This document shows positions 5,524 to 51,605 of a stretch of DNA of 64,000 bases, piece after piece (within the stretch, counting starts at the first letter, position 1; every line of letters begins with the position of its first letter). The position numbers were made by a program, and so were the translations under genes. Below the pieces are notes generated by a model. That model made no database searches and was not told the DNA's origin. It worked only from the letters and a program-made list of their open reading frames with translations. This stretch comes from Escherichia phage vB_EcoM_SA35RD, in sequence record OL960577.1. The stretch is one strand, 5' to 3'.

Positions 5524-5545
5524 AGCAAAAAGGGCCGAAGCCCTT
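5524..5545 (-). terminator. intrinsic terminator-like hairpin (UUCG loop)
   Basis: AAGGGC-CGAA-GCCCTT preceded by A5 on plus strand (U-run on minus RNA). Confidence 0.5.
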
Positions 5546-20549: not shown

Positions 20550-20570
20550 GGAGACCGAAGTCTCCTTTTT
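20550..20570. terminator. hairpin with T-run on plus strand and A-run on minus, possible bidirectional terminator
   Basis: GGAGAC-CGAA-GTCTCC followed by TTTTT on plus strand, immediately after gp41 stop. Confidence 0.4.
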
Positions 20571-29551: not shown

Positions 29552-30183
29552 TGTTCGCCTCGTAACATGGCACCTAGTGCACCACCAGGGTGGAACTTAA
29601 GGAAGTCATTAGAGGTAAATCCGCGTTCAGACGAAAGGTTGATAGCAAACGTATCGATAAGCGCTAACAACAATGTGGTGGACATTGTCGGAGCTAAAGA
29701 GTTCTCGTCAACTTCTACCGCGATACCGGTACAGAACGTATAATCAAAAAGAGCTTCGTATTCTTGTGGAATGTCAGGGTTACAATGTAACAGAATCTGT
29801 TTAACCTGAGGACGAATCATACGAAGATGTTTAGCAACACCTATCATTTCTTCAGTCTTACCAGAACGACTAATATGAATCAACACATCATTAGGCGCAA
29901 TGAATCCTGCATCACCGTGAGAATAATGCCCGGTGTTCAAGTACATACTCGGGATACCGAGTGAAGCAAATGTCTCAGAAGCTTTAGTTGCAATATTAGC
30001 ATTCTTACCAACACCTGTAATAATTACTCGGCTTTCATAATTACTAAGTCCTGGGCGTCGAAGAGTTTCTAGAATAGCATTATAACGAGCAGGGTTTTGA
30101 CTAATTACTTTGGCCATAGCGGCCAAAGAAGAAGCTTGTTTTATGATTGCGTCAATAGCGATAGTAATAGGAGTAGTTTTCAT
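29548..30183 (-). CDS. SIS-domain sugar-phosphate isomerase, arabinose-5-phosphate isomerase-like
   Basis: 211 aa; GVGKNANIATKASETFASLGIPS...SHGD resembles KdsD/GutQ SIS domain. Confidence 0.6.
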   Translation of the reverse strand: MKTTPITIAIDAIIKQASSLAAMAKVISQNPARYNAILETLRRPGLSNYESRVIITGVGKNANIATKASETFASLGIPSMYLNTGHYSHGDAGFIAPNDVLIHISRSGKTEEMIGVAKHLRMIRPQVKQILLHCNPDIPQEYEALFDYTFCTGIAVEVDENSLAPTMSTTLLLALIDTFAINLSSERGFTSNDFLKFHPGGALGAMLRGEQ

Positions 30184-30223: not shown

Positions 30224-32935
30224 TCAAAAATCGAACATATCGAACAGAGATGCTTTCTTCTCGTAATCGAGTTTCGCTGCTGATGTGAATCCTTCAAGTG
30301 GTTTAATAAATGTCTTCTCAAGGAGAACAGTGTAGTCCATCCAATGAAGTACGTCGTCTTTAATTAAATCTGTTATTTCAGTGCCAGAAGGCCATGCGAT
30401 ACATTTATCACCGAATGGGTTTCCTTCACGTAAAGGCAGAACATATACTTTTTCACCTTCTACAACTTGTGGTGCATCGATATTACCTTTGATAGCCCGG
30501 TTATACGTCAGAATTCCACGAATATGGAACGGGCATTTAGGACCAGGGAATCCACCGACGTCATATTTAGCAATGTTATTCGCAGAAGATACCGACGCGA
30601 TGCTAATATAATTCAATTGACGGAATTCTTTTTCAAACTCTTTAAAATATTCTTGTAATGATTCTTCACCTTCTTGAAGCATACGACGAATACATTCTTT
30701 AAGAGCTTTCTGTACTGCTTTAGGGGTCGAAGATTTCTGAGTCTCTAGACCCATGATTTTGAGTTTAGGCTCAGCGTAACGAGTACCTTCCATATCCCAC
30801 ACGTTTAATGCATAACGTTTCTTACCAGTCCAAAATCCGCCAATACCTTTAGAACCAAGCGGAGGTCCAGCGATAGCTTCTCGGTCCATGAACATCAAAT
30901 GTTGCTTATTATTCATGTATTCGCACATTTCACGGAAACCTCTATCAATAGCAGGTTCCATACGTTCACGAGCGAACTTATCTAAGAAGTCTACCCAGTG
31001 GTTGGTATCACGGAATTTAGATTCACCAACCTTATCGATAATTTTATCAGCAGATACGTAAATAGAGTCTGTATCACCATAAAGAACGAAAGCTTCACCT
31101 TCTGTACCACAAACTTCATTCAGATATTCATTAACTTTACGTTCAATCCACTGTAAAGCCATTTGCCCGAATGTTGTGATTGCAGTAGCATTACGCAAAT
31201 CATAATAACGGAACCAAACGTTTCCAAGTGCACCATAAAGTGAGTTGATGAGCAATTTACGGTTAATTTGTGCAGTCATACCTGCAACTTCAGTACGTTG
31301 AGCTCTAAACAACATTTCATTAAGAGATTTAGCAGACAACTTTTTAATCTTTTCTTTAATCTCATCGCTGAAGTCGAAACGATAATCAACATCTAACGGT
31401 TCGTCAACAGAAAGATTAGGATTATGCAATGCCTCTTTAATTATTTCACCATTACGTTGAGCTGCAAGCATATAACCTTTATGTTCTTTACGTTGATTAA
31501 AGACCTTAGTGATTTCAGTTGGAACAACACCATCACGGTCTTTATAATACATCATGCCGTTAGGAGAGCAACTATACACATCTGAAGGACGTTCAGCGAT
31601 TGCGTTAATATAATCATGCAATGGAGCTACTTTAAACGTTCCTGCTATTGTTTCCGGGCTAATATTCACTTGGCGAATAATACTTGGATACAGAGATGTA
31701 AGGTCGAAACTCATTACATATTTGTATCGATTTGGAATAGGTTCCTTAACAAAAGCGCCAGGATAAGGTTGAACCGGGTGAGAACGACCTTGTGGAATCA
31801 CCTTGTTCTGCTCTTTAAGGCTATTAAAAATAATAGCATCCCATGTTTTAATTGGGCTAAACACAGATTGAATCTGTATCTTAGCATAATAACCCATGTC
31901 CAAGCTCAAGTTGATGAACTGTCGCTTAGCATCAATTTGCAATACACGATACACATCGATAATGTTATAAGAAATATATCGTTGGTGATTGCTTTCACGA
32001 AGCTTAGAAATAGGGCCGTCATATTTCAGTTTACCAACGTTCAATTCAAATTCTGAAATGTAATCCAGAGAATACGACGGTTGATTGGTAAAAGAGAATT
32101 TTTTGTAAAGGTCAATGTAATCAAGAACAGAGATACCGAACAATGTAATGATTTCACGAGAACCATACATGTTTTCGATAACTTTAACACGAGTTTTACG
32201 ATGTGGTGATAAACGTTTCGCAGTAGATTCGCCAAAAATATTCTTGATTCGGTTATACACATATGGAATATCAAATGACTCAACGTTCCATCCAGTCAAA
32301 ATGACAGGAGTTTTCTGTTGCCAGAAGTTGAGATATTCCATCAACAATTCTTTTTCGTTATCAAACGGCATATAAATGATTTTATCGATAATTTCGGATG
32401 GAACTTCATCACCACCTTGTTCTTGAAGCTTAGCCGCAATTTCGATAGACCATTCTTCTACATTACCGTATGGAGAATTCAATAGATCAAATACGTAGAA
32501 CCTGTCGTCAATTGAGTCATAATGGGTGATAGCATCAATCGGATGTTTTGCTTGTGACGGCTCAGGGAACCCATCCGGAGATGTTACTTCGATGTCGAAG
32601 TTAGCCACACGAATTTTTGTATGGTCGTATTTGATTTCATAGTTATAAGTGTCAGACAAATACGCCAATTTGAAATCGTCCATGCCAAGTGCTTCAAGTC
32701 CGATATCTTCCATGCGTTTAATCCATTGGGAGGCATCACGCATATTAGCGAACAACTTACGAGTACACGGCTTACCATAGATATCGAAATATTTCGTAGC
32801 CTGACTTTCCGGACAATGAGCAAACAGTGATGGTTTATATTCTACTTCACGAGTACGTTCACGGCCATTAGAATCGATGTAACGTTCAAAAATTGAATCA
32901 CCAATCTGTTCAACCGTTAAGTAAAATTCTTTCAT
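30224..32935 (-). CDS. 43: DNA polymerase gp43 (family B)
   Basis: 903 aa; N-terminus MKEFYLTVEQIGDSIFERYIDSNGRERTREVEYKPSLFAHCPE matches remembered RB69 gp43; YGDTDS motif. Confidence 0.95.
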   Translation of the reverse strand: MKEFYLTVEQIGDSIFERYIDSNGRERTREVEYKPSLFAHCPESQATKYFDIYGKPCTRKLFANMRDASQWIKRMEDIGLEALGMDDFKLAYLSDTYNYEIKYDHTKIRVANFDIEVTSPDGFPEPSQAKHPIDAITHYDSIDDRFYVFDLLNSPYGNVEEWSIEIAAKLQEQGGDEVPSEIIDKIIYMPFDNEKELLMEYLNFWQQKTPVILTGWNVESFDIPYVYNRIKNIFGESTAKRLSPHRKTRVKVIENMYGSREIITLFGISVLDYIDLYKKFSFTNQPSYSLDYISEFELNVGKLKYDGPISKLRESNHQRYISYNIIDVYRVLQIDAKRQFINLSLDMGYYAKIQIQSVFSPIKTWDAIIFNSLKEQNKVIPQGRSHPVQPYPGAFVKEPIPNRYKYVMSFDLTSLYPSIIRQVNISPETIAGTFKVAPLHDYINAIAERPSDVYSCSPNGMMYYKDRDGVVPTEITKVFNQRKEHKGYMLAAQRNGEIIKEALHNPNLSVDEPLDVDYRFDFSDEIKEKIKKLSAKSLNEMLFRAQRTEVAGMTAQINRKLLINSLYGALGNVWFRYYDLRNATAITTFGQMALQWIERKVNEYLNEVCGTEGEAFVLYGDTDSIYVSADKIIDKVGESKFRDTNHWVDFLDKFARERMEPAIDRGFREMCEYMNNKQHLMFMDREAIAGPPLGSKGIGGFWTGKKRYALNVWDMEGTRYAEPKLKIMGLETQKSSTPKAVQKALKECIRRMLQEGEESLQEYFKEFEKEFRQLNYISIASVSSANNIAKYDVGGFPGPKCPFHIRGILTYNRAIKGNIDAPQVVEGEKVYVLPLREGNPFGDKCIAWPSGTEITDLIKDDVLHWMDYTVLLEKTFIKPLEGFTSAAKLDYEKKASLFDMFDF

Positions 32936-32993
32936 TTAATTTCCTTTAGACGAGTTATTGTCTTTTGTTTGTTGATGAACTTATTATACTCCA

Positions 32994-33013
32994 AATGGGA
33001 CCGAAGTCCCATT
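32994..33013 (-). other. stable hairpin (UUCG loop) between regA stop and gene 43 5'UTR
   Basis: AATGGGAC-CGAA-GTCCCATT; followed on minus strand by GGAGTATAAT and gene 43 SD. Confidence 0.45.
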
Positions 33014-33016
33014 GCT

Positions 33017-33385
33017 TTAATTACCAATTGTATATTTTGCTTTCAAAGTCCAGTCATCTTTCTGTTTAAAAGAGATAACACGGAAGTTATTAGTAAGGCC
33101 AAACAGATCTTCACGAGCAGAGTCTTCAATAACAATCAAGCCCCAGTCTTCAAGCAACTGAGCAATCGAATCACGTCGCTGATAGTCTTCACCGTCAATA
33201 TCAACCTGACGTCCATCCATACGCAGCATTTCTTTAAAGTGGACGATGTAGTATTTACCTTGCTTTTGGAGGATATGACAGGACTGATAAAGGACTTTAT
33301 CCTTGTTATTAGCGATGCCCATACGGGTCAAAGTCTCTTTGACTTTAAGAAAATCTTCAGGGTTCTTCAATTTAATTTCAATCAT
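33017..33385 (-). CDS. regA: translational repressor RegA
   Basis: LKVKETLTRMGIANNKDKVLYQSCHILQK and NNFRVISFKQK match remembered T4 RegA; start at MIEIKL. Confidence 0.85.
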   Translation of the reverse strand: MIEIKLKNPEDFLKVKETLTRMGIANNKDKVLYQSCHILQKQGKYYIVHFKEMLRMDGRQVDIDGEDYQRRDSIAQLLEDWGLIVIEDSAREDLFGLTNNFRVISFKQKDDWTLKAKYTIGN

Positions 33386-33387
33386 TT

Positions 33388-33951
33388 TTACCATTCCAAT
33401 GCTAATTTTTTAAATTGTTTTTGTTCTTTCACATTTTTTGTAACTTCTTTGAGAAACTCATCAGTGACCATGGCCTTCAGTTCTTTAAGGACTATTGGCA
33501 GCTTGTTATTTTTTTCAAGGAGCCGCTTATACTCGGTAGCATCATTCATGTTGATTGTGTAATGTTTCATCAACAGTTTGATAACTAGTAACTCTGAAGT
33601 GTCTTCGACTAGTTTAGCCCATTTAGAGAATCGTCGGCCACGTGGAATTGCCGCCATCATATAGTTGAAGTGCGCTTCATCACTTAATTCAGAACCGACT
33701 AAGTTCATCATGTAAACGGCTGGCATACATTCTGGGAACTGGGATAATGAGTTCTCAACCATAAATTTTGAGTAGTCGACCTGAGCAATTGACATAGATT
33801 TCTTTTCATTAATAGCATTAATGATTTTAAAGAATTCATTCTCAGGTTTTTCTTTAAACATGTCAGCACATTTTTGAATCGCGTCAGCGTCGTTAGACTT
33901 CCATGCAATTTGGTGCTCGTTAAGTTGGACGTCATCATCAAATAAGTTCAT
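33388..33951 (-). CDS. 62: clamp loader subunit gp62
   Basis: 187 aa, same length as T4 gp62; synteny. Confidence 0.7.
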
Positions 33952-51575: not shown

Positions 51576-51605
51576 ATTATACTCCAACCATCCTTGGTTG
51601 TACAT
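51576..51605 (-). promoter_or_regulatory. promoter cassette with internal palindrome
   Basis: GTACAA-CCAAGGATGGTTGG-AG-TATAAT. Confidence 0.5.

Follow-up and report, generated by a model that had tools for sequence, protein, structure and literature searches.

In this RB69-type phage, the 81 nucleotides that separate regA from gene 43 form a compact control region in three parts, of a kind already characterised in T4 and RB69. Taken as a whole, it is best explained, with a probability that we put at roughly 0.85, as a terminator or stabiliser hairpin (hairpin 1), followed by the promoter of gene 43 and then by a second hairpin (hairpin 2) that would be the true operator for self-repression by the gene 43 product, gp43. 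Every part of the spacer matches a described element, and the feature is already known. An earlier note on this DNA had proposed that the gene 43 leader carries an autoregulatory operator and had named hairpin 1, a conspicuous UUCG hairpin, as the candidate. The region was well chosen, but the hairpin was the wrong one: the published description of the operator fits hairpin 2, which lies in the same interval, adjoins the Shine–Dalgarno (SD) sequence, and had been overlooked.

The regA–Gene 43 Junction

The window analysed here is a stretch of 64,000 nucleotides from Escherichia phage vB_EcoM_SA35RD (record OL960577.1). Gene 43, encoding the DNA polymerase gp43 (903 aa), occupies 30224..32935 on the minus strand, with its ATG at 32935-32933; regA, encoding the translational repressor RegA (125 aa), occupies 33017..33394 on the same strand and ends in a TAA stop at 33019-33017. 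Both assignments follow from the list of open reading frames and from the annotation of gp43 and regA in RB69 and its relatives. The same list places genes 62, 44, and 45 further upstream of regA, also on the minus strand.

With a 701-nt query, the regA–43 junction shows 98-99% DNA identity to RB69 and to about 150 other Mosigvirus genomes. With a 106-nt query centred on the spacer, 156 phage records match, 149 of them with an identity of 99% or more, and the spacer itself is the same, base for base, as that of RB69. Read 5' to 3' on the minus strand, its elements are the regA stop, the UUCG hairpin, GGAG-TATAAT (32992-32983), the second hairpin, the SD sequence, and the gene 43 ATG. The first half runs TAA-AGC-AATGGGAC-TTCG-GTCCCATT-TGGAG-TATAAT, and the portion after TATAAT runs AAGTTCATCAACAAACAAA-AGAC-AATAACTC-GTCT-AAAGGAAATTAA-ATG. 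An Rfam scan of 32700-33300, at E values up to 10, returned three chance-level matches, and neither hairpin was covered by any family; there is therefore no curated RNA family in which membership could be tested.

The junction was compared with its counterparts in viral contigs. A scan of these contigs for RegA gave 80 loci, in 45 of which gene 43 was within reach, and the 45, together with the window, T4, and RB69, reduce to 39 distinct regA–43 junctions. A common module is found in 36 of the 39. It consists of a G+C-rich hairpin with a tetraloop, a stretch rich in T, (c/t)GGAG-TATAAT or something close to it, an operator hairpin with the loop AAU(A/C/U)ACUC, an SD sequence, and the ATG, with a spacer of 3-21 nt between the –10 block and the operator hairpin.

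The gp43 Operator

The gp43 proteins of T4 and RB69 bind an RNA hairpin together with a stretch overlapping the ribosome-binding site (reviewed by Uzan and Miller, PMC3014915). According to the same review, the hairpin is 18 nt long in T4 and 16 nt in RB69, its top and loop are shared between the two phages, and the loop contains -UAAC-, a sequence that was also recovered in the first SELEX experiment. The underlying work is that of Andrake et al. 1988, Tuerk & Gold 1990, Wang, Pavlov & Karam 1997, and Petrov & Karam 2002 (via PMC3014915). Both polymerases are autogenous translational repressors, with RNA targets that have diverged (PMC535899).

Hairpin 2 (32948..32963, minus strand) has the form AGAC-AAUAACUC-GUCU, with a stem of 4 bp and a loop of 8 nt. 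The whole hairpin, AGACAAUAACUCGUCU, is 16 nt long, is identical to that of RB69, and directly abuts the SD sequence AAAGGAAA at 32947-32940, which the earlier note had correctly picked out before gene 43. The 3' part of the operator and the ribosome-binding site together span 32936..32947 (AAAGGAAAUUAA). The T4 counterpart, AGCCU-AAUAACUC-GGGCU, is 18 nt long, carries the same loop, and occupies the same place 5' of the SD sequence. Since a 16-nt hairpin with a -UAAC- loop that runs into the SD sequence is what has been published for RB69, the operator of this phage is, as judged from its sequence, hairpin 2 with the SD region rather than the UUCG hairpin. Free gp43 would bind hairpin 2 and the adjoining SD region and block entry of the ribosome, so that synthesis of the polymerase would be autoregulated. 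Hairpin 2 is weak (–2.2 kcal/mol), yet it is present in the minimum-free-energy fold of the leader.

Comparison among the junctions indicates that the structure is conserved. In an alignment of 17 distinct sequences anchored on the loop motif only, four of five stem pairs change on both sides and 85.9% of cells are paired. The covariation score was reached by none of 500 shuffles, and pairing is lost when the registers are slid. The loops vary almost only at position 4, which may be A, C, or U: among the 36 junctions AAUAACUC occurs 11 times, AAUCACUC 17 times, AAUUACUC seven times, and AAUAACUG once. No further copies of the operator hairpin were found in a search of the whole window, and a literature search for AAUAACUC returned unrelated papers only.

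The proposal that the UUCG hairpin is all or part of the RNA operator has a certain appeal. Nothing else in the regA–43 spacer folds as stably, it is conserved, with pairs that covary among relatives, and read-through transcripts from upstream promoters would carry it. The hairpin that the earlier note described is indeed there, with its 8-bp stem, at 33013-32994 on the minus strand, and the distance of about 60 nt that was given for it comes to 59 nt when measured from the end of the hairpin to the ATG. At that distance, however, it lies too far away to occlude the SD sequence, and it precedes both TATAAT and the counterpart of the start of the T4 promoter P43, so that it is absent from P43 mRNA. 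It also differs from the known operator in loop and size, having a UUCG loop on an 8-bp stem and a length of 20 nt, versus AAUAACUC on a stem of 4-5 bp and a length of 16-18 nt. Its loop varies among relatives (UUCG, UACG, UCCG, GAAA), and the same CUUCGG hairpin recurs after seven other genes in the window, which argues against a site specific for gp43. Moreover, the CUUCGG tetraloop has no known binding protein (PMC4371310). An operator role for the UUCG hairpin thus appears highly improbable.

Some relatives have no operator of this type. A hairpin with the loop AAU(N)ACUC was not found before gene 43 in locus L045 and loci L046-L048, which belong to more distant relatives whose RegA is 56-63% identical, or in locus L025, which has an insert of 780 nt. 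These cases are consistent with the statement in the literature that some T4-related polymerases do not autoregulate.

The Proposed Promoter of Gene 43

Between the two hairpins lies GGAGTATAATAAG (32980..32992, minus strand), in which TATAAT at 32988-32983, preceded by TTGGAG like those of the window's early promoters, is the proposed –10 element of a gene 43 promoter. The earlier note had recognised here the –10-proximal half of a repeated promoter cassette, and the block does follow the hairpin, at 32992-32980. The cassette in question is a set of four near-identical early-promoter blocks of about 30 nt (GTTTACAACCAAGGATGGTTGGAGTATAAT) on the minus strand, with TATAAT starting at 51581, 50561, 8910, and 8353 and with the pattern (G/T)T(T/G)TACA(A/T)CCAAGGATGG(T/A)TGGAGTATAAT. 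The gene 43 copy has in common with these blocks only their last 12 nt, TTGGAGTATAAT. The description of this block as a remnant is probably wrong, since the hexamer is retained in all 36 operator-bearing junctions and its counterpart in T4 is a mapped promoter.

That counterpart is P43, a middle promoter whose start site is listed at position 29933 (Hinton review, PMC2988021, Table 1). With the T4 gene 43 ATG at 29893 (NC_000866), the P43 start is 40 nt upstream of the start codon; it follows TATAAT by 5 nt and precedes the operator hairpin by 3-4 nt. The order of elements in T4 is a CUUCGG hairpin, TTGGAG-TATAAT, the start site, the operator hairpin, and the SD sequence; the window keeps this order and shares TTGGAGTATAAT with T4. 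By analogy with P43, and from the spacing to the –10 element, transcription in this phage is predicted to start near the A at 32976 (32974..32978, minus strand), 7 nt past the hexamer, with an implied leader of about 41 nt. TTGGAG-TATAAT may therefore be regarded as the –10 region of a homologue of P43 that would likewise depend on MotA and AsiA, and a leader of this length would carry the hairpin 2 operator. Because the P43 start lies downstream of both the UUCG hairpin and TATAAT, the UUCG hairpin would be absent from promoter-proximal gene 43 mRNA; it is predicted to serve as promoter DNA and as part of upstream RNA, outside that message.

As DNA, hairpin 1 spans positions –37 to –18 relative to the predicted start, and the –30 region of the promoter would lie inside it, as ACTTCG (–31 to –26), 13 bp, and TATAAT. 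For promoters of the MotA/AsiA class the expected –10 sequence is TAnnnT, preferably TATAAT, which is the hexamer found. The candidate MotA box, TGGGACTTCG, is a poor one, agreeing with (a/t)(a/t)(a/t)TGCTTtA at only about 5 of 10 positions; its CTT core is separated from the –10 element by 13 bp, versus an allowed 12±1. The two phages share TTGGAG-TATAAT, its placement between the CUUCGG and operator hairpins, and an implied leader of 40-41 nt, but they differ at –30, where T4 has a GCTT core with a 15-bp spacer, outside the stated 12±1, and the window has ACTT with a 13-bp spacer.

It is conceivable that hairpin 1 matters mainly as double-stranded DNA, with the CTT of its loop acting as the MotA box and the inverted repeat being incidental to any function in RNA. 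P43 belongs to the class of middle promoters activated by MotA and AsiA, and T4 P46 offers a precedent for an ACTT core (both PMC2988021). The only CTT near –30 is that of the hairpin 1 loop, and in the window ACTTCG precedes TATAAT by exactly 13 bp, a spacing within the allowed range. Against this, the stem pairs of hairpin 1 covary, which recognition of DNA by MotA does not need; lineages with GAAA or UACG loops have lost the CTT and kept the hairpin; the corresponding spacing in T4 is 15 bp; and the relatives with an extended layout (see below) possess a separate TGCTAT or TACTTTA box and still retain the hairpin upstream of it. We regard this explanation as unlikely in its exclusive form, noting that a role as an RNA hairpin and a role as a MotA box do not preclude one another.

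A different suggestion is that the TATAAT block is what remains of a promoter that no longer works, that gene 43 is expressed by read-through only, and that the conserved GGAGUAUAAUA is, in RNA, a site for the endonuclease RegB at which the gene 43 message is parted from regA. The absence of a –35 element and of a consensus MotA box would accord with this, as would the work of Nolan et al., who predicted no early, middle, or late promoter at this interval of RB69. Read as RNA, GGAGUAUAAUA (32992-32982, minus strand) agrees with the strong RegB consensus GG*AGRAYARAA at 5 of 7 variable positions, and RegB processing is described in a T4 review as stimulating gp43 synthesis in T4. The homologous T4 sequence, however, is listed as a promoter on experimental grounds, and its start has been mapped (PMC2988021). 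Furthermore, a hexamer of the form TA(T/A)AAT lies upstream of the operator hairpin in 36 of 36 distinct operator-bearing junctions (TATAAT in 32, TAAAAT in four), while GGAG is replaced by GTAG, AGAG, GGGG, CTGGG, or GATGA in 11 of them. No documentation of RegB cleavage at the gene 43 GGAG was found in the literature consulted, and the RB69 regB gene has diverged, according to the T4 review. The dead-promoter explanation is therefore judged improbable, and TATAAT, from its conservation and its T4 homologue, is probably a working –10 element.

One may also imagine that the 33 bp running from hairpin 1 to the end of TATAAT are triple-coded, serving as an RNA 3'-end hairpin, as a Mot box in the loop, and as the RegB site GGAGUAUAAUA. 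If so, the compensatory G–C to A–U change that keeps hairpin 1 paired would also retune the Mot box from GCTT to ACTT. RegB cleavage would trim read-through RNA to nearly the same 5' end as that of promoter-initiated transcripts, and every gene 43 mRNA would therefore present the operator near its 5' end. This idea is speculative, and we think it rather doubtful.

A scan for sigma-70 promoters missed the proposed gene 43 promoter, which lacks a –35 element. The sole sigma-70 call on the plus strand, TTGTCT-18-TATTAT, is a reverse reading of the same A+T-rich block and was taken as chance. An early-type –35 element inside hairpin 1 was also considered and rejected: the hexamer there, GGGACT, whose spacer would be 16 bp, agrees with TTGACA in 3 of its 6 positions, and the motif GTTTAC is absent.

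Two side observations concern promoters at this junction. On the plus strand, 33010-33036 holds CATTGCTTTA, 11 bp, and TATATT, a near-consensus MotA-type middle promoter that would read into regA in the antisense direction. The T4 sequence at the corresponding place is cccTTGCTTAA-10-TATATT, and the site is absent from the published list of RB69 middle promoters. Most lineages retain its AAGCAA motif, which lies between the upstream stop and hairpin 1; the –10 part is missing where the hairpin comes after a different ORF. Separately, in loci L019 and L028 no more than 3-5 nt separate the gene 43 –10 hexamer from the operator hairpin. If transcription started 7 nt past the hexamer, it would therefore begin inside that hairpin, and promoter-initiated transcripts of these two loci might lack an intact operator.

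The Hairpin Following regA

Hairpin 1 (32994..33013, minus strand; AAUGGGAC-UUCG-GUCCCAUU) begins 3 nt after the regA stop and has eight Watson–Crick pairs and a UUCG loop closed by C–G. Its fold has a free energy of –11.1 kcal/mol (z = –4.3), and none of 200 shuffles folds as well. In an alignment of 21 distinct sequences, both partners have changed in seven of the eight pairs and 92.3% of cells are paired, a percentage inflated by anchoring the alignment on the best hairpin in each sequence. The loops at this position in the 36 junctions are UUCG in 29, UACG in three, and UCCG, UUAC, GAAA, and AAAA in one each. We take UUCG, UACG, and UCCG to be loops of the UNCG class and GAAA to be of the GNRA class, both stable tetraloop classes. 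Since the loops are mostly of these classes, it is the structure and not the loop sequence that is kept in most junctions.

T4 has GGGGC-UUCG-GCCCC at the same place and, reportedly, this regA–43 hairpin was among the CUUCGG hairpins that Tuerk et al. studied in 1988. Hairpin 1 shares with the intercistronic C(UUCG)G hairpins of T4 the C–G-closed UUCG loop, the G+C-rich stem, its location on the transcribed strand, and its position between the cistrons regA and 43. The stems differ by a compensatory G–C to A–U change, GGGGC/GCCCC in T4 versus GGGAC/GUCCC here. Intercistronic CUUCGG hairpins in T4 mRNA are the subject of a commentary on Tuerk et al. 1988 (PMC4371310).

The window has eight C(UUCG)G hairpins, hairpin 1 among them, versus 0.5 expected by shuffling, and every one is on the minus (transcribed) strand. 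Stems of at least 5 bp were required in this count, and those found have 6-9 bp. They lie at 54767-54752, 39648-39629, 33013-32994, 22323-22304, 20568-20547, 14960-14941, 5545-5530, and 3664-3647. Most of them sit just past genes, and several are then followed by T-runs. Those at 5545 and 39648 continue with a T-run, TTTTGCTTTA (a consensus MotA box), 11-12 bp, and TAGAAT, a layout that makes 5545-5490 and 39648-39590 canonical composite modules of a hairpin and a MotA promoter; the hairpin at 20568 is followed by an early –35 element, GTTTAC. Composite arrangements of terminator and promoter have been published for T4-like phages as PeSL and PmSL cassettes (Comeau et al. 2014, PMC4122927; see also Arbiol et al. 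2010, PMC2839356), and the modules at 5545, 39648, and 20568 fit this description. The gene 43 element resembles these cassettes in having a stem-loop and a –10 sequence, with the stem-loop directly before a proposed promoter, and in lying at a site of ORF gain and loss. It differs in that the stem-loop overlaps the –35/–30 region (the –35 or Mot-box segment) instead of preceding it, and in that it belongs to the core replication cluster and not to a hyperplastic region.

The relatives display both arrangements. In 24 compact junctions, including those of T4, RB69, and the window, the hairpin is 13-17 bp from the –10 element and occupies the –30 region. In 11 extended junctions, hairpin 1 is followed by TTT(T), a separate Mot-like box (TGCTAT or TACTTTA), 11-12 bp, and the –10 element, which is the canonical order of terminator and then promoter.

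Whether hairpin 1 terminates transcription was considered by the usual features of an intrinsic terminator. The hairpin is G+C-rich, only UUU follows it before GGAG, and a scan of the minus strand did not call it. Nolan et al. have no terminator entry near RB69 33,3xx-33,5xx. The scan did call a terminator on the plus strand only, with the tail GCTTTAATTA; this candidate was rejected because no plus-strand gene ends there. Since the conserved RNA hairpin lies just past the upstream stop, and since relatives have terminator–promoter layouts, hairpin 1 is read as a 3'-end structure of the upstream unit. It would act on the 45-44-62-regA messages as a leaky intrinsic terminator, as a barrier to 3' exonucleases, or as both, and it would not be a binding site for gp43. 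The most likely description is thus a hairpin that terminates or stabilises transcripts at their 3' end and is fused to the promoter of gene 43.

Gene Content and Significance of the Junction

In 35 of the 36 junctions with the module, hairpin 1 lies no more than about 4 nt past the stop of the upstream ORF; in locus L044 the distance is 11 nt. Where an extra ORF (38-234 aa) follows regA, the module still adjoins gene 43, and hairpin 1 then follows the stop of the extra ORF. A family of small ORFs (54-78 aa, ...YGL..TQTxFDL.E..Q.EFQ...), represented by 18 distinct insert sequences, is found between the regA stop and hairpin 1 in loci L006-L008, L010-L016, L020, L021, L024, L032, L036, L038, L040, and L069. 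It is shortened to 38 aa in L011 and is absent from the window, RB69, and T4. Unrelated inserts occur elsewhere after regA, an example being a 234-aa ORF in L025. The junction after regA is a site of small-ORF gain and loss.

The module of hairpin, promoter, and operator travels as a unit with gene 43. The comparative additions made here are small, and they raise no new question for specialists. The interval holds the classic autoregulatory operator of the T4-family DNA polymerase, the RNA target of the first SELEX experiment, and the main value of the analysis is a correction: the operator is the weak AAUAACUC hairpin beside the SD sequence, not the conspicuous UUCG hairpin.
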